The notes: generated by a model not told the origin, from the letters alone. 64,000 bases of DNA from a virus (IMGVR_UViG_3300050343_000110); one strand, 5' to 3'; positions 5,990 through 60,240 are shown, counted from the stretch's first letter. Translations and numbers: made by a program.

Positions 5990-6020
5990 CAAATCCCCCT
6001 AACGGTGGTATTATTATATA

Positions 6021-8539
6021 ATGAAATTTTACACACACGTTGCCCAATGGGGCAATCAACTACTTGTTCGTGCAGTAGAGAATGGTGTTCGTTCTAACTT
6101 CAAGGTTAAGTACGAACCCACTCTCTATGTGCCTGTTCAGAAAGAGACTGGCTGGACTACCCTAGAGGGTAAGAATGTCAGTCCTATGAACTTCCTCTCT
6201 ATTAAAGAGGCGAAGGAGTTTGTTGAACAGTATCAAAGTCAGCCCCATCTTGTCTATGGTATGACTCAATTCCCCTACACCTACATCGCCGAAAAGTATT
6301 CTAAACAGATTCAGTTTGACAGTTCACAAATGCGTATTGTCACGATTGATATTGAGGTAGAGTGTGAGAATGGTTTCCCTAACGCCGACAAGGCTCTAGA
6401 ACCTATGTTGGCTATCACCATCAAGAACCATGATACAGGACGTATCAAGGTTTGGGGTTTGCACGACTATCACAATGACAGAGAAGATGTTCAATACATC
6501 AAGTGTCAGACTGAACGTGAACTTCTGGCTCAGTTCCTTGCATGGTGGGAAAGTGACTATCCAGACGTAATCACTGGTTGGAATACAGAGTTCTTTGATA
6601 TTCCCTACATCTGCAACCGTATCAAATCGGTGATGGGTGAAGAGGCTATGAAACGTCTGTCGCCTTGGGGTATTGTAAACTCTCGCATGGTGAATTCTGG
6701 TTATGGACGTAAAGACCAAGTGTATGATATTGTGGGTGTTGTTGAGGTTGACTATCTTCAACTATATCGTAAGTTTACTTATTCTGCACAGGAATCTTAT
6801 CGTCTTGACCATATCGCCTTTGTGGAACTTGGTGAACGCAAAGATGAGAATCCTTATGAGACTTTTCGTGATTGGTATACGAAAGACTATCAGTCTTTCC
6901 TAGACTACAACATCCAAGACGTTGAACTGGTTGATAGGCTTGACGATAAGATGAAACTTATCGACCCTTATTCTGACTATGACGTATGAGGCCAAAGTAA
7001 ATATCTCTGACTCGTTTACGTCTGTTAAGTATTGGGATGTTCTCATTTACAATCATCTTCTCAAGAGAAAGATTGTCATCCCTCAAAAGACTTCCCACAA
7101 GTCCAAGGGTGAAAAGTATGTGGGTGCATATGTGAAAGAACCACAGGTTGGACAACACAAATGGGTTATGTCTTTTGACTTGAACTCATTGTATCCACAC
7201 CTTATCATGCAGTACAATATTTCGCCAGAAACACTATTGCCCGAAAAACGGTTGCCAGTTGATGTTGACCATCTTCTCGACAACAAACCTCTTCCTAAAC
7301 TTGAAGGTGCAACATTCACACCTAATGGTGCAGTCTTTCATAAACGTCACCAAGGGTTTCTCCCTGAGATGATGCAGTCGATGTATAATGACACGTACTA
7401 TCTACAAGAAGAAGATGTTGCAGGCAAAACAACAATATGAAGATACGAAGGATGCTAAATATCTAAAAGATGTTTCAAGGTACAACAACATTCAGATGGC
7501 TCGCAAGATTTCTCTAAACTCTGCCTATGGTGCAATTGGTAACGAATGGTTTCGTTATTATGATTTGCGTATTGCAGAAGGTATTACTACCTCTGGCCAG
7601 TTCTCTATTCGGTGGATTGAAAAGTCTCTGAATATGTATCTCAACAAACTGTTGAAAACTGAAGGAGAAGATTATGTCATTGCGTCTGATACGGATTCAG
7701 TATACATTACTTTTGACAAATTGGTTAATACTGTGCTTAAAGAACGAGAAGGAGAGTCGGAAGATTCATATCGTGGGCGGGCTGTTGATTTCCTTGACAC
7801 AGTGGCTCAAGAGAAGATTGAACCTTTTATTGATAAGTCTTATCAAGCTCTTGCTTCGTATGTAAATGCATATGAACAAAAGATGCAGATGGCTCGTGAG
7901 GTGATTGCCGACAAGGGTATCTGGACTGCAAAGAAAAGATACATTCTCAACGCATGGGATGTGGAAGGTGTTCGTTATCAAGAACCTCAACTCAAGATTA
8001 TGGGTATCGAGGCTGTCAAGAGTTCGACTCCTGCTCCTTGTCGTGACAAGATTAAGGAGTGTTTGAAGATTATTATGTCTGGTACAGAGAAAGATGTAAA
8101 CAACTTCATTCAAGAGTTTCGTGAAGAGTTTTTGCAACTGTCACCAGAAGAGATTGGATTCCCTCGCTCTGTGAATGGTATTCAGAAGTGGAGTGATAGT
8201 GCAAGTATCTTCAAGAAGGGAACACCTATGCATATCAAGGGCGTTATCCTTTACAATCACTTTGTCCGTCAACAAAAGTTGACTAACAAGTATCCACTAA
8301 TCCAAGAGGGTGAGAAAATCAAGTTCCTCAATATGCGTACTCCTAATCGTATGCAGTCTAACGTCATATCTTTTATGACTAAATTACCAAAAGAACTTGA
8401 CATTCACTCACATTTGGACTATGATATACAATTCGAGAAGGCTTTTATTGAGCCTCTCACTTTTATTATGAATCAGATTGGATGGAACATTGACCGTTCC
8501 TATGGTACACAAATGACTTTGGAGGACTTTTTTACATGA
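6021..8539 (+). CDS. gp43: Family B DNA polymerase gp43 (two frameshifts near 6963 and 7390)
   Basis: Exo DIEV, SFDLNSLYPH, KISLNSAYGA and SDTDS fall across three contiguous frames. Confidence 0.95.
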
Positions 8540-9675
8540 GATATAAACCATACAACCTAGAAGATGTAGTAAATGCATCTAATGAAAACAAGTTCAATGT
8601 AATCTCTACCTTTGCTGGTGGGGGTGGTTCGTCCACTGGTTATCGTCTGGCTGGTGGTAAAATACTTTGTGTAAATGAATTTGTAGAAGAGGCCCAGAAC
8701 ACTTATAGAGAAAACTATCCAGACACACCGATTTTGCCTGGCGACATTAAAGAACTATCTGGTAAAGACTTCTTGGATGTTGTTGGATTGAAAGAAGGTG
8801 AACTTGATATTCTAGATGGTTCTCCACCATGCAGTGCCTTCTCAGTCGCTGGTAAACTATCACATTCTACTGATGGTAAACACTCAGACGGTTGGGGCCA
8901 GACTAAGAATTATTCAGATGGTAAGATGGTAGAAAATATTGAGGACTTGTTCTTTGAGTTTCTACGAGTTGCAGATGATATCAGACCTAAAGTTATTGTT
9001 GCAGAGAATGTGAAGGGGTTGACTATCGGTGAGGCCAAACAATACTTTAATAAAATTAATAATACATTTGAAGATATTGGATATGATGTTGTTGCAAAGG
9101 TATTAGATAGTCGTTACTTTGGTGTATCACAAACTAGAACTCGTGTTATCTTTATTGGTTTGAGAAACGATATTACAGAGAAGGCTGGACTAAACTTTAT
9201 GACTATCAATAGTGTGTTTCCAGAACAAAGTGTAGATGTCATTCCACTAAAGGATGCACTTGTCGGACTAGAATATGATGCAGAGGAAGTTGACTATCTA
9301 ACTAAGAAGTTTCTTAATACTGCATACTGGAAAGATACTGGTAGTAATATGGAGATTGACCCACCAAAAGTTTTGACAGGTATGGACTATCATCCTAAAG
9401 GACACCACTTCAATTTGAAACGTGTATCACAGTATGCACCAGCCCCAACACTAACTGCAATGGGTAGTAATGATACAACTGCTGGTGCGTTTCACTGGGC
9501 CGAACCCAGAAAACTAACTATTGGCGAACTGAAAAGAATACAATCGTTACCAGACGATTTCAAACTTACTGGTAAGTGGAATCAGAAATCAGAACGTATC
9601 GGTAGAATGGTGCCTCCTCTGATGATGAAGGCTATCGCAGATTCAATTTATAATAAAGTACTAAAGGAGATATAA
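8536..9675 (+). CDS. C5-cytosine DNA methyltransferase-family enzyme (possible carboxymethyltransferase)
   Basis: FAGGGG, GSPPC, ENV, R.R; motif X reads GRMVPP where GN.V is usual. Confidence 0.9.
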   Translation: MRYKPYNLEDVVNASNENKFNVISTFAGGGGSSTGYRLAGGKILCVNEFVEEAQNTYRENYPDTPILPGDIKELSGKDFLDVVGLKEGELDILDGSPPCSAFSVAGKLSHSTDGKHSDGWGQTKNYSDGKMVENIEDLFFEFLRVADDIRPKVIVAENVKGLTIGEAKQYFNKINNTFEDIGYDVVAKVLDSRYFGVSQTRTRVIFIGLRNDITEKAGLNFMTINSVFPEQSVDVIPLKDALVGLEYDAEEVDYLTKKFLNTAYWKDTGSNMEIDPPKVLTGMDYHPKGHHFNLKRVSQYAPAPTLTAMGSNDTTAGAFHWAEPRKLTIGELKRIQSLPDDFKLTGKWNQKSERIGRMVPPLMMKAIADSIYNKVLKEI

Positions 9676-10376
9676 TGGCTGACTTTACTTTTGCACATAG
9701 AGAGGAAGGTTTTGATGAACATATTGAACATTCTATTCGTGGTTACAGTAATTTACTTGATGATGTGGTTCAGTACTCACGTTACTTTGTAGAAGATGAT
9801 ACTAATGTTGTAGACATTGGTTGTTCTACAGGAAAGTTCACTCAAATGATGTTAGAGGCTAATCAAGATTTTTGTTGTGATGCACATTACATTGGTGTTG
9901 AGATTGCAGAGGGGTTTCATAATGACTTACTCAAAAGACAAGAAAACATTGACAAATTGCACCCTTGGGCCTCAACTGAATTCTTATTTGAAGATGTTCG
10001 TGACTACGAGTTTGAAAACTGTTCTTTGATTACATCTATCTTCACTTTACAATTCATGCCACCTAGACATAGACAAGAAGTAATAAGACGAATCTATGAA
10101 GGATTAAATACTGGCGGTGCATTTATATTTGGAGAGAAAACAGTATGTCAAGACCCTAGACTACAGAATATGATGACATTTAATTATTATGACTACAAGA
10201 GAAAGAACTTTGATACAGAAGATATCATGGATAAAGAAAAGACTTTACGTCATATGATGAAACCAAACACTTGGGATGAGATTGTAAACAATCTTATTGA
10301 GGCTGGGTTTTGGGGTGATAAGATACAGCCATTTTGGAGAAACCACACATTCGTAGGAGCGATTGCAATAAAATGA
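9675..10376 (+). CDS. cmoA: CmoA-like carboxy-S-adenosylmethionine synthase
   Basis: FTF..F..I..SIRGY, DIGCSTG, FTLQF, IYEGLNTGG..EK, DYKR match the CmoA pattern. Confidence 0.85.
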   Translation: MADFTFAHREEGFDEHIEHSIRGYSNLLDDVVQYSRYFVEDDTNVVDIGCSTGKFTQMMLEANQDFCCDAHYIGVEIAEGFHNDLLKRQENIDKLHPWASTEFLFEDVRDYEFENCSLITSIFTLQFMPPRHRQEVIRRIYEGLNTGGAFIFGEKTVCQDPRLQNMMTFNYYDYKRKNFDTEDIMDKEKTLRHMMKPNTWDEIVNNLIEAGFWGDKIQPFWRNHTFVGAIAIK

Positions 10377-10669
10377 AACCTAACACAATAGTCACACTAG
10401 TAATGACAACAGGAGCCGAAATTATTGGACGGCTCGTAAAAGATGAATTTTCAACAATAGTAATTTACAAGCCTCGCCTAGTACAGGCGACTCAGCAGGG
10501 CGTGGGGCTTGTGAATGGAATAAGCATGACAGGTAAAGAAATCAATGAAGATTTTGAGTTTCCTAAAACATCAGTCGCATACATGGTAGAAACTATGAAA
10601 GAACTTGCAGATGGCTGGACTACACAAACTTCTGGTATTGCAGTTCCAACTCAAGGAATTATAAAGTAA
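10373..10669 (+). CDS. Hypothetical protein (Sm-like small T4-type protein)
   Basis: TGAEIIG and C-terminal TSGIAVP motif. Confidence 0.55.
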   Translation: MKPNTIVTLVMTTGAEIIGRLVKDEFSTIVIYKPRLVQATQQGVGLVNGISMTGKEINEDFEFPKTSVAYMVETMKELADGWTTQTSGIAVPTQGIIK

Positions 10670-11736
10670 TGGTTATCGAAGAAGATTTCAAACTTGACTT
10701 TTCTAATGTATTGATTCGTCCAAAGCGTTCAACACTAAAATCTAGAAAAGAAGTGGATTTATTCAGAACTACAATCTTTAGAAACAGTAAAGAGGAATAC
10801 ATTGGTGTTCCTATTATGGCTGCGAATATGGATGGAGTTGGTACGTTTGAAATCGCAGATGCACTTGCAAAACATAATGTATTTACTTGTTTGGTAAAAA
10901 CATATTCAGTGAATGAACTTGTCAGTTTCTTTGATTGTGAAGATGAGGATTTGAAATATGACAGAAGAGAAAATGTTGCAATGTCTATCGGTGTATCTGA
11001 TGAAGATTTGCAAAAGTTTCGTAATGTTTATGAGTTGACTGATGGGGCTATTAAATACCTATGCGTAGATGTTGCAAATGGATATACTGAAATGTTCAGT
11101 AACTTTATTTATCAATTGCGTTTGAATCATTCAGAACTTGTTATCATAGCAGGTAATGTAGTTACTGGTGATATGACACAGGAGTTAATTCTAAATGGAG
11201 CAGATATTGTTAAGTGTGGGATTGGCCCTGGCAGTGTGTGTACTACTCGTATACAGACAGGAGTCGGATATCCACAACTCTCATCTGTTATTGAATGTGC
11301 TGATGCCGCTCATGGTCTTGGAGGCCATATTATTGCTGATGGTGGTTGTGTATCGTCTGGTGACGTAGCAAAAGCATTTGGTGGTGGAGCAGACTTTGTT
11401 ATGCTTGGTGGTATGTTGTCTGGCCACGATGAAGGTGGTGGGGAATATATATTAGAGGATGATAATCCAGAACCTATAGGAGTTCGATTCTATGGGATGA
11501 GTTCGGAGATAGCAAATGAAAAACACTTTGGTGGACTTAAAGACTACCGAGCTTCTGAAGGAAAAGAAGTCGTTGTTCCCTACAGAGGAAGCATTCATAA
11601 TACTATGCAAACTATTCTTGGAGGCATCAGATCGTCCTGTACTTATGTTGGAGCAAGACGAATAAAAGACTTGACAAAATGCACAACTTTTGTTAAAGTA
11701 TATAATACTCATAACACAATCTTTGGAGATAAATGA
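10669..11736 (+). CDS. guaC: GMP reductase
   Basis: KLDF.NVLIRPKRS, AANMD, DVANGY, GIGPGSVCTTR, FYGMSS. Confidence 0.95.
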   Translation: MVIEEDFKLDFSNVLIRPKRSTLKSRKEVDLFRTTIFRNSKEEYIGVPIMAANMDGVGTFEIADALAKHNVFTCLVKTYSVNELVSFFDCEDEDLKYDRRENVAMSIGVSDEDLQKFRNVYELTDGAIKYLCVDVANGYTEMFSNFIYQLRLNHSELVIIAGNVVTGDMTQELILNGADIVKCGIGPGSVCTTRIQTGVGYPQLSSVIECADAAHGLGGHIIADGGCVSSGDVAKAFGGGADFVMLGGMLSGHDEGGGEYILEDDNPEPIGVRFYGMSSEIANEKHFGGLKDYRASEGKEVVVPYRGSIHNTMQTILGGIRSSCTYVGARRIKDLTKCTTFVKVYNTHNTIFGDK

Positions 11737-12143: not shown

Positions 12144-13199
12144 ATGGATTTTCTAAAAGATATTGCAAAGACAGCAGGCAACGAATATGCTGCTTTGGTG
12201 AGTGAAGGTGTAGAGGCTGGTGATGTTGATAACTTTATCGACACTGGTTCTTATATTTTCAATGCGTTGTTGAGTGGGTCAATCTATGGTGGATTGCCTG
12301 CGAACAAAATTACAGCAGTGGCGGGCGAGTCGGCCACTGGAAAAACATTCTTTGTGATGGGTATGGTTAAGTCATTCCTTGATGCAAACCCAGATGCTGG
12401 TGTGTTGTATTTTGAGTCTGAATCTGCAATCACAAAACAGATGGTAGTTGATAGAGGTATTGACCCAGAACGTATGGTTATCTTACCTGTAACAACTGTA
12501 CAAGAATTTCGTACACAAGCAATTAAGATTTTAGATAAATACATGGAGACACCAGAAGATAAACGTGTGCCTATGATGTTGTGTCTTGATTCACTTGGTA
12601 TGTTGTCTACTACAAAAGAAGTAGATGATACAAGTGAGGGTAAAGAGACACGAGATATGACACGGGCTCAAGTTCTAAAGGCTGCGTTTCGTGTATTGAC
12701 ACTAAAACTTGGTAAAGCAAAAGTTCCTATGGTTGTTACAAACCATACCTATGACGTTGTGGGTTCTATGTTCCCAACAAAAGAAATGGGTGGTGGTTCT
12801 GGATTGAAGTATGCGGCCTCATCTATTGTCTATCTTTCAAAGAAGAAAGAAAAGGACGGTACAGAAGTTGTTGGTAACATCATCCATTGTAAGAATGCAA
12901 AGTCACGTTTGACTATCGAAAACAAGATGGTGGACGTAAGACTTATGTATGAACGTGGACTTGATAGATACTATGGACTACTTGAACTTGCACTGAAGTA
13001 TGATATCTTCAAATCTGTTTCTACTCGTATTGAGTTACCTGATGGTACAAAGACATTTGGTAAGACTATCAACAATCAACCAGAAAAGTTCTTTACCCCA
13101 GAGATTATGGAACAGTTGGATGCAGTTGCTAGTAAAGAATTCAAGTATGGACAACGTGTAGAGGAAATTGAAGTTGAAGAAGAAACTGAACAAGATTGA
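12144..13199 (+). CDS. uvsX: RecA-like recombinase UvsX
   Basis: [23 protein letters not shown]. Confidence 0.95.
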
Positions 13200-13503
13200 T
13201 ATATCAAGAGCATATGTGTATTGTAACGATCAGTCTAAGGAGTGGACAGCCCTTAGACTTACTGCACTTACAGATTATGAAGATGTAATTTTTAAGTATG
13301 GAAAGATTTCAATAGACGAAAATGAAAAAGATGATAATGCTTCTTTACAATTCGACTATGATGTGTTAGTATCACCTAACGTACCAAAAGAAGAATTAGA
13401 GAAAGATATAGAATTTAAGAATGTCATGGGTGATATTCTTATTCATATCTTAGAAGAACAATTACAAAAGGACTCAATGAAGTATGTCAATACAGACGAT
13501 TGA
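13168..13503 (+). CDS. Probable gp40-like head vertex assembly chaperone
   Basis: Lies between uvsX and 41 as in T4; LQFDY motif. Confidence 0.55.
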
Positions 13504-14893
13504 AAGAACTACACTAAGTAACTTAGTATACAATGAACCATATGCGAGAAAGGTGCTACCTTTCATCAAACCAGAGTATTTTTCAGATCGTCACGAAAGA
13601 GTTGTATTTGAAGAAATCAATAAGTTCATGGATAGGTATGGTAATCAACCTACGAAAGAAGCCCTATCTATTGAACTTGATAATAGAAAAGATTTGAATG
13701 AAGATGAGTTCAAGTCAGTTCTAACAGTTGTAGAAACACTATCTGATGCACAGATTGATATGCAATGGCTAGTAGATACAACAGAAAAGTTTTGTAAGGA
13801 TAAAGCAGTCTACAATGCTATCCTAAACGGTATTCAGATTATTGAAGGGAAGGATAAAGAACATACTTCAGAGGCAATACCATCTATCTTATCTGAGGCA
13901 CTTGCAGTTGCATTTGACCAGAATGTAGGACACGACTATGTAGAACAAGGTGAAGAACGATTTGAGTTCTATCACAAAATAGAAGAAAAAGTAGAGTTCG
14001 ACTTGGATTACTTTAACAGGATTACCAAGGGTGGACTCCCACAGAAAACTTTGAACATTGCCCTTGCTGGTACTGGTGTTGGTAAATCGTTATTCATGTG
14101 TCACATGGCTGCGTCAACCCTCATGCAAGGAAAGAATGTTCTTTATATAACTTTGGAGATGGCAGAAGAAAGGATTGCAGAACGTATTGATGCAAACCTG
14201 ATGAATATCACAATGGATGACTTACATGAGTTACCCAAAAAGATGTTTACTGACCGTCTATCCAAAATACAAACAAAGACCAACGGAAAGTTAATTATCA
14301 AAGAATATCCTACTGCATCTGCACATACAGGACATTTCAGAAGTTTACTAAAAGAACTGGCACTGAAGAAATCATTTAGACCTGATATTATTTTTATCGA
14401 CTACTTGAACATCTGTGCCTCTTCACGATTCAAGGGGAATGCAAATGTCGGATCATATTTCTATATCAAGGCGATTGCCGAAGAACTTAGAGGGCTTGCA
14501 GTTGAGAATAATGTACCAATTATGTCGGCGACACAAACTACTAGAGGTGGATATGCGAACAGCGACATTGGATTGGAAGATACGTCAGAATCTTTTGGTT
14601 TGCCTGCTACGGCTGACCTCATGTTTGCGCTTATATCAACAGAAGATTTGGAAAGTCTAAATCAGTTGATGGTAAAACAATTGAAGAATAGATACAATGA
14701 TCCAGGCACTAATAAAAGGTTTGTGGTTGGTATCGACAGAGCTAGAATGAAACTATATGATTGCGAACAGGAAGCACAAGATGACATTATTGACAGTGGA
14801 CAAGATGAAGGAGCAGCATTTGATAAAACAACTTTCGGAGTGGGTCTTGGAAAGAGCAAGACTTATGAGAAATTTACGGACATCAAAGTATAA
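13484..14893 (+). CDS. gp41: Replicative helicase gp41
   Basis: AGTGVGKS, TLEM, IDYLNI, SATQTTR, ESFGLP, KNRY. Confidence 0.97.
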   Translation: MSIQTIERTTLSNLVYNEPYARKVLPFIKPEYFSDRHERVVFEEINKFMDRYGNQPTKEALSIELDNRKDLNEDEFKSVLTVVETLSDAQIDMQWLVDTTEKFCKDKAVYNAILNGIQIIEGKDKEHTSEAIPSILSEALAVAFDQNVGHDYVEQGEERFEFYHKIEEKVEFDLDYFNRITKGGLPQKTLNIALAGTGVGKSLFMCHMAASTLMQGKNVLYITLEMAEERIAERIDANLMNITMDDLHELPKKMFTDRLSKIQTKTNGKLIIKEYPTASAHTGHFRSLLKELALKKSFRPDIIFIDYLNICASSRFKGNANVGSYFYIKAIAEELRGLAVENNVPIMSATQTTRGGYANSDIGLEDTSESFGLPATADLMFALISTEDLESLNQLMVKQLKNRYNDPGTNKRFVVGIDRARMKLYDCEQEAQDDIIDSGQDEGAAFDKTTFGVGLGKSKTYEKFTDIKV

Positions 14894-15095
14894 GAAGCCA
14901 AAGTACTTTGTACACAAGAACGGTATATGGTGGGAAGTTGTTGAATTTCCTACTAACGATATTGTGCGTTCTTTTTCTAGAAAGATTGACGCTGAAATGT
15001 TTTCAGAACAACTTACTAAGAATCCACCTTTTGGTGAACGTGGAATACCGAAATTTTTGAAGGGAAATCCTTTACAGGTTGACATTTCTGAATAA
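14862..15095 (+). CDS. Hypothetical protein (start uncertain)
   Basis: Open frame filling the gap after 41; PFGERGIPKFL. Confidence 0.45.
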   Translation, partial: LMRNLRTSKYKKPKYFVHKNGIWWEVVEFPTNDIVRSFSRKIDAEMFSEQLTKNPPFGERGIPKFLKGNPLQVDISE

Positions 15096-15148
15096 TCTGT
15101 TATTATAAATAGTATTGAAATTATTTGTATGAATGGAAACGGTGTAAA

Positions 15149-16534
15149 ATGTCAATCAGAAAGTTTTATCGTCAACTGAATTCAGTTGATACATCTAAAG
15201 TATCGCACGTTGTAAGAGTTCAGAGTTTATACTCTGAATTGACTGAAGCGAATCTGAAGAAAGCTGATATTGCAAAACGTGACAACAAAGCCGTTCTTCA
15301 AGGTATTATTGATAGCAACACAAAAATATCTACAGATGAAGGACAAGTATCAATCAAGTGGATTGACAATGCATTAAAGGTTGCGTTTGATAACGATGAC
15401 TTTGATACTGCATTTCCATCAGGCAAAGCATCATTCACTGCATCTAACGGCAAAACTCTCAGAATTACACAAATAGAAAAGACTGCCGAGTTTGGTGGTG
15501 GTAAAGGTTCTGGTGGGGGTTCTTCTGGAACTCGTGCTGCTGAATCTGCACAGTGTGTATATTGTCAAGCAATCTGGAACAACCCCAAAACAGACTTCAA
15601 TATGTTAGAACTTCAGGCTGCATACGCACAAGTAAAGGTGGATGCAAGTTGGGAAGAGATTCAAAACCTATCAGATGATTGGGTTGTATCTTCTATTTCT
15701 GTTGCAAAAGGATTGTATAAAGCGCTTGGTAGAAACACATATAGTTTTCACAGAGGTTCAGAGTTTGTAGATATGATTGAAGGTTTGTTCAAGAATTCTG
15801 GACAGACTTACTTTACAAATGTAAACAAATGGACACCAGCAGATATTTGGATGGTACAGGATACCAAACTTAGTAACTATGATTTTGGTGGAAATAGTGG
15901 AAGCCCTGCACTTCCTTACATCAATCAAGAATTGTTGAAGGCATATGCCGCAAGAGATATCATGGGCGTATCTTTGAAGAAAACAACTAAAGTAAAATTC
16001 AAACAGATTAATTATAAGAAACCATTTAAGGCTCCAAGATACACTAATAAGTCTTTGGGTAAGAGAAACTTCTTTGCATCAAAGGACGGTTATCTTTTCG
16101 GTGCGAGTGGTTTGGAGATGCAGTTTAGAACCTTCCCAGCATTTCAGGCAGAGATTATTGGTGGTAAAGCGAAACACGGTAAACTTAGTGGAGACAGTGG
16201 AATTTCTAGTCCTATCGGTAAAGTTTTACAGGGCGCTGGTGTAAGAGAGTTTCCGGCCAGAAGCGATATTACTAACATGATTAGTAGAGAAAACGATAAG
16301 TTTTTTGAAATGTTTTATGCAGAGTATTTGAATGCTGGTGAAGATAGTAAAGTAACACTTGACGATTTCAAAAAACAACTATCAAAGAAAGATAGTGGTT
16401 GGTTAGAGTCAAAATATCTTGTCACATTTTTATTTAATAGAATAAAAGGTGCAGAACAGAAGTTCTTAGAACTTGCATATAGATATGCAAAATCCGAATC
16501 AGAAGATTCGTGTGTACACTTAAAGGCGATGTAA
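15149..16534 (+). CDS. PD-(D/E)XK nuclease-like late protein
   Basis: AAE...KWTPADIW...GVSLKK pattern; downstream of TATAAATA at 15104. Confidence 0.55.
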   Translation: MSIRKFYRQLNSVDTSKVSHVVRVQSLYSELTEANLKKADIAKRDNKAVLQGIIDSNTKISTDEGQVSIKWIDNALKVAFDNDDFDTAFPSGKASFTASNGKTLRITQIEKTAEFGGGKGSGGGSSGTRAAESAQCVYCQAIWNNPKTDFNMLELQAAYAQVKVDASWEEIQNLSDDWVVSSISVAKGLYKALGRNTYSFHRGSEFVDMIEGLFKNSGQTYFTNVNKWTPADIWMVQDTKLSNYDFGGNSGSPALPYINQELLKAYAARDIMGVSLKKTTKVKFKQINYKKPFKAPRYTNKSLGKRNFFASKDGYLFGASGLEMQFRTFPAFQAEIIGGKAKHGKLSGDSGISSPIGKVLQGAGVREFPARSDITNMISRENDKFFEMFYAEYLNAGEDSKVTLDDFKKQLSKKDSGWLESKYLVTFLFNRIKGAEQKFLELAYRYAKSESEDSCVHLKAM

Positions 16535-17780
16535 TGATAAATTTTAGTTCATTTCTTACAGAGGACAAGGGTGGAAAGAACCTACACCTAGAACATATTG
16601 AGGATGAAATCCTTAACTATGGTATTTCTGGTGGACGGGCTTCAATTAACTTTGTTCGCTCTCTACGAGATATGCTTGCTGGTGCATCACGTTCATCAAT
16701 AGACATGACTGTAAAGTGGGATGGAGCTCCTGCAATATTTGCTGGTATTGACCCTGCCGATGGTAAGTTTTTTGTTGCAAAGAAATCAGTATTCAATATA
16801 GAACCAAAACTCTATAAGTCAAATGCAGAGATTGATGCAGATGGATTATCTGGTGCATTGAATAGCAAATTCAAAGTTGCACTTGCAGAGTTTTCTAAGT
16901 TGGGTATTACAGATGTTCTTCAAGGTGACTTGATGTTTACTGATGATGTATCTACAGAAACTATTGATGGTAAGAGTTTTCTTACATTCCAACCCAACAC
17001 TATTGTATACGCAGTAGATGTAAATTCGGATTTGGGTAAGAAAATTGAAAATGCAAAGATTGGTGTCGTATGGCACACAACATACAAGGGTGCAGAACTA
17101 CAGGATATGAAAGCATCATTCGGTGCAAACATTAGTGGACTGCAATCTCCATCAACAGTATGGATGGATGATGCGACATACAAAGATGTATCTGGTAAAG
17201 CCACAATGACTGAAAAGGAAACATCTGCTGTGACAGCATCTTTATCATCTGCTGGTACAACATTCAGAAAGATTAATTCCACCCTGTTAACATCCTTTAT
17301 GAATATACAAAATACATTCACTGGAAACTTATCTGGAGCCTCTCTCAAGACTTACAATAATAGTAAGGTAAGAAAGGGGGAGACTATTAAGAATCCATCT
17401 GCTCATGCAAAGGGGTACTTAAAATGGGTAGAAGATGCATTTCAAAAGAATATAGACAAACTCAAGACCCCCTGCTCGTAAACAGGACTTGGAAAAAAAG
17501 AAAAAAGAAACTGTTCGTGAACTTGCAAAACACACGAAGAATTTGACTAGTATTATTGAGTTTCAGAACCACATTGTAGATGCAAAGATGGGGGGTCGTA
17601 AAGAAACTAAATACTGTTAAGAGCATTGGAACTTTCATCAAAACCGCCAATGGGTTCAAAGTTGTAAACCCAGAAGGATATGTTGCAATTGATAGAGTTA
17701 CAGGTGGTGCAGTTAAACTGGTGGATAGAATGGAATTTAGTTTCAATAACTTTACTGCAATAAAGGCATGGGATAAATGA
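16534..17780 (+). CDS. DUF6267-type protein with ATP-dependent ligase motifs (frameshifts near 17466 and 17590)
   Basis: NLHLEHIED, TVKWDG (motif I), QGDLMF (III), PEGYV (IV), VKLVDR (V). Confidence 0.7.
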
Positions 17781-19727
17781 TAAAGTTTTCAGAAATAAGA
17801 GAAGCTCGTGGTGACACTTGTGTATTTACCTTTGGTAGATTCAACCCACCAACGACAGGACACGAAAAACTATTAGATGCTGTTGCGGCACAGGTAAAGA
17901 AAAATCCTGGCGCACCCTATTATGTATTTGCGTCACACTCTGAAAACCCAAAGAAAGACCCTCTTCCATATGTAAAGAAGGTTGCATATATGAAGAAGAT
18001 GTTCCCAAAACACGCAAGGAACATTGTTGTAGATAAGGCAAGAAATGTATTTGAGATTGCAGTCTCATTACACAACAAAGGACACAAGGCAATCGTAATG
18101 GTTGTTGGTTCAGACAGAGTTGCAGAGTTTGATAAACTACTGAACACCTATAATGGTGTAGAAGCAAAACATGGTTTCTATGGTTTTGACAACATCGAAG
18201 TTGTATCTGCTGGAGAAAGAGACCCAGACGCAGAAGGTGTTGCTGGAATGTCTGCATCTAAGATGAGAGCCGCAGCATCTGCTGATGACTTTGACCAGTT
18301 CAAACTTGGTTTACCTAATGGTTTCAAACAGGGTATGTCTCTATTCAAAGATGTTCGTAAGTACATGGGTATTCGTGAATCATTTATTACGCACCAAGTA
18401 CAACAGACAGAAGAAGATGTGATTCGTGACTTGTATGTTGAAGGTAAAATCTTTACTATTGGTGAAGAAGTAACAGATACTTACAGTGGAGTAACAGGAA
18501 AGATTATTCGCAGAGGAACAAACTACGTTACTTTTGTAACAGAGGATGGCACATCATTCAAGAAGTGGTTGTATGAACTAGAACTAGCAGAAGATTGCTG
18601 GCCAGGATTTAAACAAGTTGGTATGAAAAAGAAGAACGGTAAAGACGTACCGAATTGCGTACCAGTTGGTGAAAAACAAGACAAGGACATTGATGATAAG
18701 AAGGGAACACAGCCTGCCAAGTATTTTGCAAAAGATGCTGAGGGTGATGAAATGGCAAAGTCTACAAAGGACAAGAGAGATGCTCATTTCAAAAAACAAG
18801 CGAAAAAGGATGACGATACTAAATCTGCATACAAACCAGCGCCAGGCGATGCATCTGCAAAAACTAAACCATCAAAGTATACAAACAAGATGAAGAAGAT
18901 GTTCCCAGACTTGTACAAAGAGATGGTAGATGAGAGTGCAACAAAGTCACTACAGAAGAAGGCAGATGCCTCTGGTATTTCTCTTGGTATTCTGAAGAAG
19001 GTATTCGATAGAGGTATGGCTGCATGGAAGGGTGGACATCGCCCAGGCACAACTGCTGTTCAGTGGGGCCATGCAAGAGTAAACTCTTTTATCTCAGGCG
19101 GCAAGACAAGAACTACTGGTGATGCAGATTTGTGGAAACAACACAAGGGTAAGAAAGAGACTTATGAGATTGGTAAAGACTATGCAGACCCATACTCGTA
19201 AGATTACACCGTTTCAAGAACACAGTTCATGTTGCGATGACTGTGCAGAAGAATCTAATCTAATTGAATCTAATGTATATCGTGTAGGTTCAGAAAAGTA
19301 TTATGAGTTCTTCCAAGAGAAAAGAGATGAATATAATATTGGAGTTTACACCCCAACAGGTTTTGATAAAGAACTGATGGAAGGTGATATTGGAAAGTAT
19401 GATATGTATCAAGGAAACCATGTTCCACTTGATTGTCCTATGATTGAAGAAAAAGATGTGGAACTAAACAAACCTAAAGTCGGTGGGCCTAAGAAGTACT
19501 ATGTGTATGTCAAAGACCCAAAGACAGGTAATGTTAAGAAGGTTACATTCGGAGATACGAGTGGACTGAAGGTTAAGTTGGATGATAAAGAGGCAAGAAA
19601 AAGTTTTGCCGCTCGTCATAACTGTGACCAACAAACAGACAGAACCAAGGCTGGATATTGGAGTTGTAATCTTCCAAAATATGCCAAACAACTTGGTTTG
19701 AGTGGGGGAGGCAATTTCTTTTGGTAA
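17777..19727 (+). CDS. HxGH-class nucleotidyltransferase (cytidyltransferase-like) multidomain protein (frameshift near 19187)
   Basis: FGRFNPPTTGH, VGSDR, GMSASKMR, followed by several small modules separated by acidic x-x-E linkers. Confidence 0.8.
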
Positions 19728-19996
19728 AACCTTATACTGAATCTTATGACAACGGTTTGATTATCAGAGAGTTTAAAGAGGATGTTGACAGTGAAGAACT
19801 GGTATGGCATAGAGACAAAAGAACAAGAGAGATAACAATTTTAGAGGGTAGGGGTTGGCAATTACAACTAGACAATCAATTACCTAAAGAATTACAACAA
19901 GGACTTTTATACACCATCCCAAAGATGGAGTATCACAGATTAATAAAAGGTACAGGGAAACTTGTCGTAAAAATATGGGAAGAAACACATGACTAG
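19721..19996 (+). CDS. Cupin-like hypothetical protein
   Basis: WHRD...E...YHRLIKG metal-binding pattern. Confidence 0.55.
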   Translation: MVKPYTESYDNGLIIREFKEDVDSEELVWHRDKRTREITILEGRGWQLQLDNQLPKELQQGLLYTIPKMEYHRLIKGTGKLVVKIWEETHD

Positions 19997-21467
19997 ATAT
20001 ACAAAAACTATGACAGAGGCCCTGCAAGAGATTCGTGAGGGGTTCTCATCAAAACAAATTAAAATGGCAATCGGTGTTGCATCAGATAAAAGATATGCTG
20101 GTGGAAACATGACAGGTGCAGTGGACGCTATTGAGAAAATCAAAAAAGGATTGTCTGACCATCCTCAAGTCGCCGCAGTTCTGAAAAGACAGAATGAAGA
20201 TCTGGAAGAAGAACTAGAACTTACTGAAGCAAAAATATCTAAAGAACTTGCAATTAAAATTTTGTCAATGAGGAAGGATAAAAAGTTTGTAAAGGTTTCT
20301 GGTGATTTTGTTCCAAAAATTTATTTGAGTGGCAACGATAAAGATGCATTAAAAAAAGAATTTGGAAAACTGCCTAGAGGACTACCTAGCGCAACATCTG
20401 GTATGTCAGTTGTATCAATGATTAACTATGCACTTGGTAGTAAAGATGGTCGTGACCCAATTGACACAGAGGACGGCGACAGTCAATCACCAAAATTAAT
20501 TAGTTGGAATAAAGGTGGTAAAGTTATTGGTAAACCAAGAACTGTAGGTGACGCAGTTAAAATTGCTGGTGTTAGAATGGAAAGTGTTGAAAGTGCTGAA
20601 CTTGATGAAGGTAAGATGAAAGACCGTCTAATGAAGGCACAAGACCTCATGGGCCCATCTAAAAATAGAGAACAGGGTATCGAATTTGTGATGAAAGGTT
20701 TAAAGGTTTCAGAGAAGGAAGCAACTAAACTTGTTGATGCAGTTCTAGATATGGTTATGAATAATGAAGTTGAAATTGATGAAATGAAAATGAATGACCC
20801 TAAGTTGAATAAAATATTCGACAAACTCAAAAAGGGTGATACTGTCAAACTCAAGACAAGTTCTACTATCAATCAAGGTAAAGACTTTGTAGAGTATATT
20901 GTGAAATCAAAGAACACAGTAAACAAAGGCAGAGTTGAAAAGATTACTCTTGTTACTAAAGGTAATGAGAAGGCAGTCAAGAAGTTTCTATACAAGAGAG
21001 ATGGCCAAGTAACATTTGCTATCGGTGATATGGGTGCATCTATTGATGATATCAAAGAAGAAAATCTTGATGAAGGTAAGGCTTATAAGTTTGCCGCTGT
21101 AGATAAAAAAGGATTGGTTATTGGATTTGCGTCTGACGAAAAAGATGCAAAGGATATGGCAAGAAGAAACAAGGGTAGAGTTGTTACTCTAACAAAACCT
21201 CTTCCAGATAACAAGAAGAGTGACATGATGGTTAATCGACCATTGCCAGACAAGATGGACAAGTTCCCAACCAATACGAGTGCAACTCAAGGTAAACGTA
21301 TGGGTGAAGAAGATGAAAAGAAAATGGACAAACCAGATTCTGCTAAAGAGGTAGAACAGGGGCGTGATGATAAGAAGAAAACTCGTATCGCTCAGTTGCA
21401 GTTGCAAATTGCAAAGGCAACAGAAACAATTAATAAACTAAACACACAGGAGAAACCAAATGCCTAA
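19989..21467 (+). CDS. Probable internal head (virion) protein, multi-module
   Basis: Lys/Glu-rich; repeated L/I-x-E linkers (LTEA, LDEG, IDEM, LDEG). Confidence 0.55.
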   Translation: MTRYTKTMTEALQEIREGFSSKQIKMAIGVASDKRYAGGNMTGAVDAIEKIKKGLSDHPQVAAVLKRQNEDLEEELELTEAKISKELAIKILSMRKDKKFVKVSGDFVPKIYLSGNDKDALKKEFGKLPRGLPSATSGMSVVSMINYALGSKDGRDPIDTEDGDSQSPKLISWNKGGKVIGKPRTVGDAVKIAGVRMESVESAELDEGKMKDRLMKAQDLMGPSKNREQGIEFVMKGLKVSEKEATKLVDAVLDMVMNNEVEIDEMKMNDPKLNKIFDKLKKGDTVKLKTSSTINQGKDFVEYIVKSKNTVNKGRVEKITLVTKGNEKAVKKFLYKRDGQVTFAIGDMGASIDDIKEENLDEGKAYKFAAVDKKGLVIGFASDEKDAKDMARRNKGRVVTLTKPLPDNKKSDMMVNRPLPDKMDKFPTNTSATQGKRMGEEDEKKMDKPDSAKEVEQGRDDKKKTRIAQLQLQIAKATETINKLNTQEKPNA

Positions 21468-21959: not shown

Positions 21960-22474
21960 ATGCGTAATCTTGTGGAACTCACAAAGATAAATGAAGCAGA
22001 GCTTCCACAAATATATTGTGACATGGATATCAAGTTCTTTGTGACTTCATTGGTGGTTATGAACAACTTACTGGTTTACAGTTTGCGAAAACCGATAAAG
22101 ATGAGCGGTGGAATGCAATCACAGGGAAGAAAGATTTCTGGGCAACTCTTAATTGGATGCCTGGCGCTAAAGTAATGTGGAAGTTGATTAATAAATATAA
22201 TGCAAATATTTTGTCTGCATATTCTAATAGAGATGGAAACAGTAGAAGGGGTAAGACACAATGGTTGTCTAAGAATGCCAAACCTACTGGTAAAACACAT
22301 CTTGTTCTGAGAGCAGATAAACAAAAGTATGCCATGACTGACGGTAAACCTAATATCTTGATTGATGATTATATCAAAAATATCAAGGAGTGGGAAGCCG
22401 CTGGTGGTATTGGGATTCATCATCTGAGTCCAACACAAACTATATCTCAATTGAAGAGATATGGATTTAGATAA
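21960..22474 (+). CDS. HAD-family 5'(3')-deoxyribonucleotidase-like protein (frameshift near 22026)
   Basis: IYCDMD(Q)VLCDF, ILSA, K..W, ILIDD...W..AGGIGI. Confidence 0.8.
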
Positions 22475-24355: not shown

Positions 24356-24766
24356 ATGAAAACCTTTAAGAATCATTTAAACGAAAAGGCTGTAGATGGT
24401 GGTTATCCAGTAGATACAGATTCATTTTCTAACGACCTTGCAAAACCAGAAAATATCGAAAGAATTAATTCGTTTCTTGGTGCAATGAGTAAGATAGAAT
24501 ATCTTGTTCCAGAACACGCAATTAACAAAATTAAAGAAAGACTAGGTAGACTAGCAATTTCTTTCGGTGATGTTGACTTGAATGAGGCAGGGGGTAAAAT
24601 CTCCCTGCCACTTACTCAATTTGGTGGTCGTTCAGGAATGGATGATAATGCTGAAAAGATTGATGACGATGGTATCTCTCACAAAGTTGAGGGCGGTTTG
24701 TCAATTGAAATCATGCATGAAAAAACTGGAGCAGGAACACATTTTATTAAAGCCAGAATCGTTTAA
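24356..24766 (+). CDS. Hypothetical late protein with capsid-targeting-like N-terminus
   Basis: Starts MKTFKNHLNE. Confidence 0.6.
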   Translation: MKTFKNHLNEKAVDGGYPVDTDSFSNDLAKPENIERINSFLGAMSKIEYLVPEHAINKIKERLGRLAISFGDVDLNEAGGKISLPLTQFGGRSGMDDNAEKIDDDGISHKVEGGLSIEIMHEKTGAGTHFIKARIV

Positions 24767-24781
24767 TAGACGAAGGCAAAT

Positions 24782-25144
24782 ATGTTTGAAAAATTAACTA
24801 ATGATAACATCACAATGTTTGCAATTAAACATTATGATAATCCACAGTGTGAAGGTGAAGCCGAATTCCATGATGACATGAAACGCTTTAAGTATGTAAA
24901 GCGTTTGTTGAGAAAATATCAAGACTCGGGCGAATTAAAAGAACGACTGATATTAAATCACTTAATTGTTATCTTTAACGTGTTCGGTGCAGATGCTGGT
25001 TCTACATTGCTTCTGTTTAAGATTGAACCTGAGCATTGGAGTATTCTAAAAACATTTATGGTGTTTTTAAATATGCTACCAGATGGTGAAATTGCAGAAG
25101 TAGAATTAAACACTGAAGTCGAGAAAGTATTAGAGAAACTATAA
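24782..25144 (+). CDS. Conserved T4-like hypothetical protein
   Basis: FAIKHYDNP.C..EF.DD..RFKY.KRL..LILNH. Confidence 0.75.
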   Translation: MFEKLTNDNITMFAIKHYDNPQCEGEAEFHDDMKRFKYVKRLLRKYQDSGELKERLILNHLIVIFNVFGADAGSTLLLFKIEPEHWSILKTFMVFLNMLPDGEIAEVELNTEVEKVLEKL

Positions 25145-25756: not shown

Positions 25757-26253
25757 GTCTAAAATTCGATGACATTATGAAAAAATTCTATGATGACCCA
25801 TCACTAGGTATCAAGACTGAAGATGCTCCTACCAACAATGCTGGTAGTGGTGCAGTCTCTATGCCACCTGATGCGGCAATGAAGAAGAAAAAGAAAAATC
25901 CATATGATGGTAGAACTAAAGAAGCAAGGCAGTTCTATAAGAGAATGGAAACGCTTCGTGCAAGAAGAGAATCTAGGCTTGCAAAGAAAGTTCAAGAGAA
26001 TACTATTGAACAGGCAAGTTATTTTGCAGAGAGTAATCTTGATGTGTTGAAAAAGATTGTAAAAGACAAACAACACCAAAATGTCAAATTTAAAGATGGG
26101 AATATGAAAGTGGACTTGTTCACTGCCTCAGCAGTAACACAAGTATATGACAAAGTTAATCGTTCCAACCAACAGAAGATGGATAAAATGTTGAATGGTA
26201 AGAAGGCAGAGTTTATGAAGATTGCCAACTTTGCACTTTCAAAGGTTAAATGA
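25753..26253 (+). CDS. Probable internal head protein
   Basis: EDAPTN, YDGRTKE and KFKDG..KVDLFTASA modules. Confidence 0.55.
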   Translation: MSLKFDDIMKKFYDDPSLGIKTEDAPTNNAGSGAVSMPPDAAMKKKKKNPYDGRTKEARQFYKRMETLRARRESRLAKKVQENTIEQASYFAESNLDVLKKIVKDKQHQNVKFKDGNMKVDLFTASAVTQVYDKVNRSNQQKMDKMLNGKKAEFMKIANFALSKVK

Positions 26254-27215
26254 AGAACTTTGCAAACTATATTACAGAACAAACTCTGTCTAAATCTGAC
26301 TTAGATGGAGTCGAAAAGTATGCAGATAGATTGTATGCGGCCGCTGGTATTGACGTTGAGTTTACCAGACATTTTCTTGACAGAGTAAATGACAGTCGTA
26401 ACAAGAAACAGATTACTGTGGCAGAACTTATTCGTATGTTTAAACAGTCTTATAAAAAGTTTGGTAAGAAGATTGCGAAACTTGGCCCTGATGCAGAGGC
26501 GGTATTAAATGATATGCAAACAGATATCAATATGCCCTTTGTTCTCAAATGGGATGGTAAAGAGTTAGACTTAATTGCAAAGACAGTAATGAGAAAGAGA
26601 AACTTTGGAACAACGAATCCAAAGTTAAGTTTTGAAGAATTTGAATTCTTTCCTGAAAACTTACATGAAAGAATTGTGCTTCCTGAACCCCCTACAGATT
26701 TACAAAAAGAAGCAGACAAAGTAAAACAGATTATTGCGAATAGGACTCCAGAAGATGAACAGTCTATTCGTATTCACGATGAGAATTCATTTTACGCTAT
26801 TGACAAATATTGTGAAGAACATGGGTTATTATTTCACGATAGTGAGATGAAAGATATCGTGATGCAAGCAAAACCCACAATCAAATATTTTAAAGAACAT
26901 TTCAATATTGATAGACCTCACGAAGTTGATCCGTCTATCAAACCAATGTCTAGTACTACAAACAAGACTAGAGCCTATCCAAGTGGACACGCAACTCAAT
27001 CAATGTTAGTTGGGTTGTACGTTTCTGCAAAGTTTCCAGAACATGAGGATGGTATAATCAGGGCCGCAAAAGAATGTGGACTTGGTAGAGTGAAAGCAGG
27101 ATTTCATTATCTTGCAGATTATGTCGCTGGCAATTTACTTGCAGAAAAAATGTTCCTAGTTATGAACAAAGATAACTATGGTAAATATATAAAGGAAGAA
27201 ATTGATGGCGCCTAG
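26250..27215 (+). CDS. Two-domain protein with C-terminal PAP2 / class A acid phosphatase
   Basis: K..F..RP, YPSGH, R..AGFHY..D; N-terminus MKNFANYITE. Confidence 0.8.
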   Translation: MKNFANYITEQTLSKSDLDGVEKYADRLYAAAGIDVEFTRHFLDRVNDSRNKKQITVAELIRMFKQSYKKFGKKIAKLGPDAEAVLNDMQTDINMPFVLKWDGKELDLIAKTVMRKRNFGTTNPKLSFEEFEFFPENLHERIVLPEPPTDLQKEADKVKQIIANRTPEDEQSIRIHDENSFYAIDKYCEEHGLLFHDSEMKDIVMQAKPTIKYFKEHFNIDRPHEVDPSIKPMSSTTNKTRAYPSGHATQSMLVGLYVSAKFPEHEDGIIRAAKECGLGRVKAGFHYLADYVAGNLLAEKMFLVMNKDNYGKYIKEEIDGA

Positions 27216-28272
27216 AAATCACAAACAGTGGAAATCAGTTCCAAACGTAGAATACATTTCAAGTGAATGTTATAATAACAACAGCATATTCCAACAAGAA
27301 CAAGAACTAATCTTCAGTAAAGTTTGGATTCCTATGTGTCACATCAGTGAGATGTATGAAAAGGGAAACTATAGAACAACGCAAATAGCAGGACAAAATG
27401 TTATTGCATATAATACAGGGGAACTTGGTGCAAGAGCATTTATCAATAATGGGCCTCAGATGCCTTCTGGTAAACTGTGGAATGATGATACCTTTGGTAG
27501 AGAACTGCATTGTGAAATAAAACATGGTGGTATGGTTTGGGTTACACTAGACCCTAATCCAACACAGAGTGTGGATGAATGGACTGCTGGTGCATTTGAT
27601 TGTATTGCAGAAGCAATTGACACAGAAGAGATGGAAGTATTCCACTACCACAAAGCCATTATAAATACAAACTACAAGTTATGGCACGATACTAACTCTG
27701 AGTTCTACCACGACTTTATGCACTACTTTAATCGTGTGTCTGGATTCAATGATGAGTATTTTGCTAGAAAAAATATCCCTTTCGACAATGGCCACGTTAA
27801 TGTTAGTTCATTTACAGTCAACTACGAAGAGTACGATGGGTTTGAGGATAGAGGCGAACTTAGTTTCCCTAACCTCCCCCCTAATCAATGGTACATGGTT
27901 GACTTATTTCCTGGCTTTAACTTTAATCTTAGAGGGAGTGCTTATAGAAGCGATAGTGTTACGCCTCTGGGCCCGAATGAAGTTCTTATAGAATTTCGTG
28001 GATATGGATTAAGAAAAGACACAAAAGAAGAAAGACAGACTAGAATTAAACATCATAATTCTATCTGGGGCCCGTTTGGTAGAAATCTCCATGAAGATTT
28101 GATTGGAGTTGCTGGACAGGGAACGACTATGCGTGAAGGAACAGAAGCACGAAATATCCTACACGGTAGACATGAGAATGGAACTATCCACGATGAAGTG
28201 GGTATGAGACATTACTATGGTGCATGGGGTGATATGCTGGGTGTAAATCCAGAACAACCTCTCGCCGCATAA
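27205..28272 (+). CDS. Ring-hydroxylating oxygenase alpha subunit, MsmA (methanesulfonate monooxygenase)-like, lacking the Rieske motif
   Basis: EQELIFSKVW..CH.SE, NYKLWHDTNSEFYHDFMH, WGPFGRNLHEDL, IHDE.GMRH; no CxH/CxxH. Confidence 0.8.
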   Translation: MAPRNHKQWKSVPNVEYISSECYNNNSIFQQEQELIFSKVWIPMCHISEMYEKGNYRTTQIAGQNVIAYNTGELGARAFINNGPQMPSGKLWNDDTFGRELHCEIKHGGMVWVTLDPNPTQSVDEWTAGAFDCIAEAIDTEEMEVFHYHKAIINTNYKLWHDTNSEFYHDFMHYFNRVSGFNDEYFARKNIPFDNGHVNVSSFTVNYEEYDGFEDRGELSFPNLPPNQWYMVDLFPGFNFNLRGSAYRSDSVTPLGPNEVLIEFRGYGLRKDTKEERQTRIKHHNSIWGPFGRNLHEDLIGVAGQGTTMREGTEARNILHGRHENGTIHDEVGMRHYYGAWGDMLGVNPEQPLAA

Positions 28273-59667: not shown

Positions 59668-59673
59668 TTTATT

Positions 59674-60018: not shown

Positions 60019-60036
60019 CTCTCTCCTTTATAGTAT

Positions 60037-60240
60037 TTATCTTTTATTCTGGTTATTCATCGCCCGTTGACGTTGTTTTGTTCTTTCATCGTCTAGATGT
60101 TGTAACAGCAGAGAAACGTATATCTCCCTCTCCCAAGGCAACATCATTTCAAGTTCGGTTAATGAATATTGATGATGTTGCATTAACTGGAAATTTAACC
60201 GATAGTAATTTTCCAGAGAATTATGAGAGAGGGCTACTAA
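60037..60240 (-). CDS. gp51: Baseplate hub assembly protein gp51-like (-1 frame relative to gp26; first ATG at 60183)
   Basis: SHNSLENYYRLNFQLMQHHQYSLTELEMMLPWEREIY; missed by the ORF track. Confidence 0.8.
   Translation of the reverse strand, partial: LVALSHNSLENYYRLNFQLMQHHQYSLTELEMMLPWEREIYVSLLLQHLDDERTKQRQRAMNNQNKR

Follow-up and report, generated by a model that had tools for sequence, protein, structure and literature searches.

The window analysed here is a stretch of 64,000 nt from the virus IMGVR_UViG_3300050343_000110 (coordinates are counted from its first letter). The source is a marine T4-like myophage, and the closest isolate is Methylophilales phage Melnitz (Kyanoviridae), the four records of which were the only nucleotide-level relatives found in the phage collection (79% identical to the window across the beginning of gene C). 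The locus in question is an operon (genes A–H, Table 1) that follows the gene of the gp41-type helicase; its second gene, B, encodes a DUF6267 protein with the predicted fold of ligase-type nucleotidyltransferases, and its third gene, C, encodes a nucleotidyltransferase with the HIGH motif.

A T4-type late promoter motif, TATAAATA, stands ahead of gene A; the window holds 11 copies of it (10 on the + strand) vs 4.4 expected, and none of the shuffles reached 11. In 27 of 43 related loci the exact motif was present in the interval from gp41 to the DUF6267 gene, mostly directly ahead of the gene that opens the block. Genes A and B overlap in TAATG and genes B and C in ATGA; the overlaps of D/E, E/F and F/G amount to 7, 8 and 8 nt, respectively, and 2 nt separate G from H. 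With this spacing the operon therefore extends beyond 19996, where a first-pass annotation made from the sequence alone had ended it, to at least ca. 22474. One late, translationally coupled operon, as proposed in that annotation, is supported: the promoter was found at 15104 ahead of open reading frames (ORFs) that overlap by 1–8 nt. All motifs quoted there were likewise present, i.e., KWDG (K61), QGDLMF, EGYV and VKLV in B; PADIW and GVSLKK in A; PPTTGH and MSASKMR in C.

Table 1: Features of the operon and of its surroundings in the window.
Feature	Position	Strand	Remarks
UvsX/RecA	12144–13199		replication block upstream of the operon
DnaB/gp41-type helicase	13484–14893		replication block, just upstream of the operon
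Sigma-70-type promoter-like site	15079–15106	+	TTGACA-16-TATTAT with TG; overlaps the late promoter; consensus match alone
T4-type late promoter TATAAATA	15104–15111	+	37 nt 5' of the ATG of gene A
Gene A	15149–16534	+	461 aa; phage-only family phrog_1462; possible restriction-endonuclease-like protein
Gene B, DUF6267	16534–17780	+	putative ligase-type nucleotidyltransferase; leader MINFSSFLTE; overlaps A and C
Gene C	17777–19201	+	N-terminal HIGH-motif nucleotidyltransferase (PPTTGH ... MSASKMR), small middle module, DUF5824; leader MIKFSEIRE
Gene D	19182–19727	+	phrog_7595 module; in close relatives part of gene C (its C-terminal end)
Gene E	19721–19996	+	91 aa; putative mini-cupin (WHRD ... 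YHR)
Gene F	19989–21467	+	492 aa; no family matched; in the coupled operon
Gene G	starts 21460	+	165 aa; hypothetical protein, before the NT5C-like gene; in the coupled operon
Gene H, NT5C-like	21960–22474	+	HAD 5'-nucleotidase-like gene; broken, two frame breaks
PAP2 phosphatase-domain protein	26250–27215	+	leader MKNFANYITE

Fold and conserved residues of the gene B protein

Gene B gave a single Pfam match, PF19782 (DUF6267, 277 bits), and none to a ligase family; in PHROGs it matched phrog_455, the profile of which (764 positions) also spans the neighbouring nucleotidyltransferase. The family comprises 2,646 clusters (50% identity) at E ≤ 0.001, and relatives were found in 460 phage records of the phage collection, mainly of cyanomyophages, including 'T4-GC 71' of S-PM2; a literature search returned no paper that mentions DUF6267.

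The fold was modelled on an intact homologue of 95% identity (AlphaFold2, alignment of 58 diverse sequences; pLDDT 91.3, pTM 0.88), and the model was compared exhaustively with 48,161 representatives of the PDB. Top matches: NgrRnl (5cot), Z 8.3 (186 aa); TbREL1 (1xdn), Z 8.2 (192 aa); Trl1 (6n0t), Z 7.5; T4 Rnl2, Z 7.3 and 7.2; T4 Rnl1, Z 6.8; DNA ligases, Z 5.8–6.4 (archaeal and human) and 5.5 (Chlorella virus, 2q2t). Ligases occupied ranks 1–5 and ca. 18 of the 50 top matches (Z 8.3–5.5), and their alignments of 165–205 residues covered most of the adenylation domain. Foldseek against the PDB gave weak rows of DNA ligases (E ca. 0.1), ligases being the sole matches at probability 0.4–0.6.

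Among the 58 DUF6267 representatives (34–61% identity to the first sequence), K61, D63, G381 and K394 were invariant and G64, Q130, D132, E380 and R398 near-invariant (G64, D132 and E380 in at least 90%). In the model K61 closes a strand and opens a loop, like motif I of ligases, and the pattern of conservation fits a catalytic role of these residues. The first-pass annotation had read motifs I, III, IV and V of a ligase in this order from gene B and had proposed a comparison with Rnl1, Rnl2 and DNA ligase; the model of the intact homologue and the structural search agree with it, ligases standing at the top instead of a different fold. Modelling and conservation thus support a covalent nucleotidyltransferase fold of the ligase type, in which the motifs follow each other as expected.

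With the RNA ligases (NgrRnl Rnl5, 5cot; TbREL1, 1xdn; T4 Rnl2, 2hvq and 1s68; Trl1, 6n0t; T4 Rnl1, 9do4) DUF6267 has in common the fold over ca. 170–200 residues and the KxDG lysine loop, after which motifs III, IV (EG[FY]V) and V (K) come in an identical sequence; the absence of an OB domain is common to both as well. After motif V the model of B holds ca. 20 residues with one short helix and no OB-like strands, so that an OB domain is lacking. Unlike the RNA ligases, DUF6267 carries a helical insert of ca. 130 aa (about 226–358) between the strand of H181 and motif IV, an invariant pair H18 and H21 (H-x-x-H) at the N-terminus, a leader of the capsid-targeting type and a HIGH-motif nucleotidyltransferase as partner, and no sequence or profile similarity to them was detected. 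The nucleotidyltransferase fold is also common to DUF6267 and the DNA ligases of the type of T4 gp30 and Chlorella virus, at lower Z; these differ from it by their OB domain with motif VI and by the PF01068 match, both of which DUF6267 lacks.

Several results weigh against the assignment of B to the ligases. A Z value of ca. 8 is middling on the scale of the aligner and not decisive alone; phmmer and hmmsearch of B and of its profile against the PDB gave no link to ligases; hhalign of the DUF6267 profile against T4 Rnl2, gp30 and Rnl1 gave no significant match (probability < 1%), and a profile of 20 Rnl2 sequences likewise gave none (probability < 1%). A local, non-significant hhalign alignment placed EGFV...K of DUF6267 on E227...K240 of T4 Rnl1 (motifs IV–V). 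The case for the fold is carried by the enrichment of one enzyme class and by the coverage of the alignments, and not by Z alone; because a sequence or profile link was missing, B is named ligase-fold or ligase-like here, and not a member of a named ligase family.

The ligase complement was compared in four genomes, a small sample. PF01068, PF01653 and PF09414 gave no match in Melnitz, S-PM2 and S-SCSM1; all three phages are without gp30 and carry DUF6267 as their only ligase-fold gene, whereas T4 gave matches to PF01068 and PF09414 (gp30, Rnl2) and has no DUF6267. In a review of the T4 family gp30 is listed as a quasicore gene, many quasicore genes being absent from at least one marine cyanophage (PMC2993671). 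Since no other ligase family matched and gp30 is quasicore, DUF6267 may be the only ligase of these phages. As one alternative, it could be the replicative or repair DNA ligase that cyanomyophages and pelagimyophages seem to lack, replacing gp30 and working in the cytoplasm on Okazaki fragments, the leader and the late promoter being secondary. The same comparison and the quasicore status of gp30 speak for such a role, together with the spread of the family among cyanomyophages, the position of the gene next to uvsX and gp41 in most loci, and the sigma-70-like site, which could allow early expression. This role is nevertheless considered unlikely: the OB domain and motif VI, which classical DNA ligases require for adenylylation, are lacking; the late promoter is conserved, and so is the capsid-targeting leader; the DUF6267 gene of S-SCSM1 lies far from the replication block; and NAD-dependent LigA of the host could serve replication.

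Gene C and the partners of DUF6267

The N-terminal ca. 190 residues of gene C matched CTP_transf_like with 28.5 bits (cut-off 21), and DUF5824 was found with 66 bits; matches in PHROGs were phrog_3041 and phrog_395. Within the family the motifs TxGH and SxSKMR do not vary, and G20, R21, P24, T26, G28, H29, S159 and R164 are invariant residues. By these sequence criteria C is confirmed as a HIGH-motif nucleotidyltransferase at the superfamily level. The first-pass annotation had gone further and named the NMNAT/PPAT class; NMNAT or PPAT proper did not stand, the equivalog scores being far below the cut-offs (TIGR01526, 16.7 vs 341 bits; TIGR01510, 15.1 vs 103; TIGR00482, 12.7 vs 112). A search of the PDB with the single sequence of C gave no matches, and one with its profile gave weak matches to PPAT and archaeal/NadR-type NMNAT (E 0.03–0.2) that covered the first motif alone.

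These scores bear on a counter-defence by cofactor rescue, which the first-pass annotation had offered as one of its two explanations. In the form considered here, C would be a true NMNAT that replenishes the NAD+ lost to the immunity of the host, and B would be an enzyme that handles NAD and not a polynucleotide ligase. The motifs GRFNPPTxGH and SxSKMR of C do resemble those of archaeal/NadR-type NMNAT and PPAT, and papers on cyanophages annotate the family as NMNAT (PMC9602691). The equivalog scores and the short PDB matches speak against it, as do the ligase-like nature of the constant partner and the scan of the operon genes, in which no Nampt, NadV or Nudix partner turned up. The explanation is therefore regarded as very unlikely, and a true NMNAT-based NAD-salvage module was rejected on account of the far too low scores and of the missing salvage partner among the scanned genes.

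The N-terminal domain of C is a clear member of the cyanophage 'cytitidyltransferase' or NMNAT-like family (T4-GC 190; phrog_3041 and phrog_395; S-PM2p139, S-SCSM1 ORF91), which occupies the same site after uvsX and gp41: Melnitz, S-PM2 and S-SCSM1 share the order uvsX, gp41 and then genes annotated as 'hypothetical', 'cytitidyltransferase' and 'virion protein'. The protein of the window adds DUF5824 and the D module. A literature search on the cyanophage 'cytitidyltransferase' gave no returns.

Gene fusions provide the best functional evidence. CTP_transf_like was carried, on either side of DUF6267, by 8 of the 20 long DUF6267 proteins that were scanned; the cupin of gene E is fused N-terminally to DUF6267 in two relatives (L055 and L041), a D-like module in P0130, and the N-terminal module of the PAP2 protein of the window (…GIDVEFTRHFLDR…) in P0178. 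Of 80 related loci, 58 have a C-like gene one or two genes downstream of the DUF6267 gene; of the 66 with room upstream, 23 have an A-like gene directly before it. On the basis of these fusions and of synteny, B and the HIGH-motif nucleotidyltransferase form the invariant core, to which A, E and D are added as variable accessories.

In a distant relative, P0132, DUF6267 is fused to a P-loop kinase of the AAA_33/Zeta type, which aligns to the kinase domain of T4 Pnk along a stretch of 149 residues that contains the P-loop (pairwise E 1e-4); the gene upstream of this fusion was not A-like. A kinase–ligase fusion is also found in Trl1, and the one in P0132 would fit end-healing and sealing chemistry. 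It lends weight to the other explanation of the first-pass annotation, an intracellular module of the T4 Pnk/Rnl1 type, in which nuclease, phosphatases and ligase would mend the cuts of host ribotoxins in tRNA (RNA). The best structural matches of B being RNA ligases and not DNA ligases, the absence of an OB domain, and the HAD-like and PAP2 phosphatases downstream point the same way. Of that proposal the ligase fold and the distant Pnk-like fusion stand, and the healing part does not: no Pnk-like kinase, polynucleotide kinase-phosphatase or 2',3'-cyclic phosphodiesterase was found among the scanned operon genes, the kinase occurring solely in P0132, and NT5C and PAP2 are not known as RNA end-healing enzymes. 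Further, the genes are late and leader-bearing, unlike pseT and rnlA of T4, and the T4 pathway has no place for a HIGH-motif nucleotidyltransferase, the constant partner here. Intracellular RNA repair is thus held to be quite unlikely.

In S-PM2 (positions 5992–7771 of the locus) the DUF6267 gene is divided between p138 and the beginning of p139, 'Cytitidyltransferase'. The DUF6267 gene of S-SCSM1 (221412–222266) lies far from the A/C block, and its profile match omits positions 207–311; ORF89 of the same phage, tried as a candidate, gave no match to DUF6267 and was rejected.

Capsid-targeting leaders and virion proteins

Two copies of the T4 leader MKTYQEFIAE lie in the T4 record, near 65.7 and 66.4 kb, which we take to be the starts of ipII and ipIII. 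The role of this leader in loading proteins into the prohead core of T4 is established (PMC3012670). The leader of gene B, MINFSSFLTE, is a clear match to it, and a leader F-x-x-[FY]-[LI]-x-E is carried by 50 of the 58 DUF6267 representatives, its Glu mostly being residue 9–11 (e.g., MKTFKHFVTE, MKTFLQFLTE). Most members of the C family share such a leader, short stand-alone nucleotidyltransferases being without it; in the A family the leader is either of the 10-residue form (MKSFGSFLLE) or of ca. 30 residues that end in L-x-E. The two E–B fusions retain the leader where the modules join, and there it would offer the protease a site. Leaders of this type occur in the window on the products of B and C, on the PAP2 protein, on a protein of 136 aa encoded at 24356 and on one with a RimK-type ATP-grasp domain at 4416; the strict pattern was met by 4 of 98 N-termini vs 0.8 expected.

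The gp21-type protease (PF03420) was found in Melnitz, S-PM2 and S-SCSM1; the window spans no head genes. ORF90 of S-SCSM1 is homologous to A (E 1.3e-33) and its ORF91, 'NMNAT', to C (E 7e-55), and both were identified as virion proteins by mass spectrometry (PMC9602691); the cytidylyltransferase of S-CREM2 was likewise detected in the virion proteome (PMC10665884). The window genes resemble IPI, IPII, IPIII and Alt of T4 in the leader of ca. 10 residues (M-K-x-[FY]-x-x-[FY]-[LI]-x-E), in late transcription, in the gp21-type protease of relatives and in the detection of neighbouring family members in virions (PMC9602691). They differ in the nature of the putative cargo: large enzymes (ligase-like protein, nucleotidyltransferase, phosphatase) take the place of an ADP-ribosyltransferase or of basic proteins of small size.

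When the late promoter, the leaders and the virion data are combined, packaged and injected enzymes are the best reading, and a late operon of capsid-tagged, injected cargo centred on the ligase-like B and an adenylyltransferase partner, C, is on balance preferred here, with considerable reserve. Since the N-terminal leaders resemble the capsid-targeting sequence of T4, the products of the late-transcribed, coupled block after gp41 would most likely be loaded into the prohead; a gp21-type protease would trim each leader after its Glu, and the proteins would be ejected with the DNA. For B itself packaging is predicted from the leader. As a divergent, OB-less ligase-type covalent nucleotidyltransferase, B would take AMP on Lys61 of KWDG and, once adenylated, could join the 5'-phosphate and 3'-OH ends of broken DNA or RNA; both this chemistry and the polynucleotide substrate are inferred from fold and motifs. 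C, with D, would be its PPAT/NMNAT-like partner that makes or recycles the nucleotide donor or acts on the phosphate end, and the variable accessories would be gene A, which may be nuclease-like, the mini-cupin of gene E and the phosphatases further downstream.

The following points weigh against this reading. The leader of gene A in the window is long, ends in LTE and has its Glu at residue 33, and that of gene C, MIKFSEIRE, is one residue shorter than the T4 leader. No virion proteome was found that reports DUF6267 itself, and the papers on the virion proteins caution that abundant proteins may carry over through CsCl purification (PMC9602691, PMC10665884). The sigma-70-type site (11 of 12 consensus matches, the top site within 13–24 kb) overlaps the late promoter, so that early expression in the cytoplasm is possible. 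The copy of B in the window is frame-broken and, if the breaks are real, would be a pseudogene.

A wider claim is advanced tentatively, and with clear doubt: that DUF6267 may be a new family of polynucleotide ligases, which provides the T4-like phages that dominate the ocean (Kyanoviridae, pelagimyophages) with their only ligase. It would be preloaded into the capsid with its adenylyltransferase partner and injected, and would seal breaks in the incoming genome (sunlight damage, nicking by the host) or host RNA before phage genes are expressed. If B is a working ligase, it would represent a new architecture in the ligase superfamily, marine T4-like phages, which are without gp30, would gain a ligase of their own, and the capsid-targeting route of T4 would be shown to deliver large enzymes. 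The constant pairing of B with C gives a concrete hypothesis for the unexplained 'NMNAT' family that recurs in virion proteomes. Cultured systems for enzymology and virion proteomics exist: Melnitz on OM43; S-PM2 and Syn9 on Synechococcus.

Two of the leader carriers were annotated further. The 450-aa protein at 4416–5768 (+) is of the RimK-type ATP-grasp family (E 7e-40), with a weak Zn_protease-like C-terminus and RSFTDFITE near its N-terminus; it may be another packaged enzyme. The 136-aa protein, without a family, starts with MKTFKNHLNE, near to the T4 leader, and its next gene is DUF7207 (E 3e-46; stretch 24356–25144, +). The leader of the NT5C-like gene, MRNLVELTKINE, is likewise of the L-x-E type.

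Frame breaks, accessory genes and surroundings

Compared with intact relatives of 414 aa and 95% identity (two aligned), gene B of the window carries two +1 insertions: one extra base beside a C5 run near 17468, and G6 in place of G5 at 17590; the 117 nt between them read correctly in the intermediate frame. Programmed frameshifting was considered and rejected, since each break is an insertion of one base, in or next to a homopolymer run, that is absent from the intact relatives, and since other genes, among them gp43 and the NT5C-like gene, are split as well.

Genes C and D form a single gene of 650–710 aa in Melnitz (650 aa) and in close relatives that are 87.5% identical across the part of C; blastx against a 709-aa relative placed residues 1–460 in the frame of C and 534–709 in that of D. 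C and D are therefore probably split here by a further frame break or a deletion. The NT5C-like gene is broken twice in comparison with an intact relative of 170 aa (L006:7183–7692). Because the breaks are so many and an essential gene is among them, they point to errors of sequencing or assembly, which are a more probable cause than decay. The family-B polymerase gp43 at 6021–8539 (+) appears as three overlapping ORFs (322, 153 and 383 aa) with matches to DNA_pol_B_exo1 and DNA_pol_B, either by further frame errors or as a split gene.

Gene A had been described in the first-pass annotation as nuclease-like. E132, D232 (PADIW), D270 and S275-x-K277 (SLKK) are invariant in its family, and in the model (pLDDT 85) D232 and S275-x-K277 stand at strand ends; together with E132 they take up the places expected in a PD-(D/E)xK nuclease. 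The exhaustive structural search gave a weak best match of Z 4.1, and restriction-enzyme and Cas4-like rows scored Z 4.0 (BsoBI), 3.6 (Cas4-like ACE1) and 2.7 (MspI); Foldseek against the PDB gave no hit, and a profile search of the PDB found nothing. Matches in BFVD were uncharacterised phage homologues alone, in cyanophages and T4-like phages of Campylobacter. Language-model neighbours were RE_HaeIII and RE_HpaII at 0.82–0.84, below the level of 0.9 for a lead. A nuclease is thus plausible and unproven.

The cupin named for gene E fared better in its relatives than in the window: 8 of 13 relatives matched Cupin_2 (best E 1.5e-5), other cupin models appearing too, whereas the copy of the window scored 17.1 bits with the cupin model, under the cut-off of 27.2; a cupin is plausible. 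Of the two phosphatases expected further along, the PAP2 domain at 26250 was confirmed; the HAD phosphatase at 21960 proved to be NT5C-like, in a broken gene the intact relative of which scored 24.4 bits with NT5C, just under the cut-off of 24.8. The gene after the PAP2 protein (stretch 26250–28272, +) carries the catalytic domain of the alpha subunit of ring-hydroxylating oxygenases.

The replication genes upstream of the operon comprise, besides those in Table 1, the gp44 clamp loader, the pieces of the family-B DNA polymerase, a C5 DNA methylase and a GMP-reductase-like gene. Within the replication module a class I SAM methyltransferase comes immediately after the C5 cytosine DNA methylase (E 3e-57; the two at 8536–10376, +), and the gene of the IMPDH/GMP-reductase family (E 1e-69; 10669–11736, +) adjoins the gene at the MazG position and uvsX. 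At ca. 58 kb the GC skew flips its sign and the long series of + strand ORFs stops (window ca. 58000–62000), which looks like a change in the direction of transcription.

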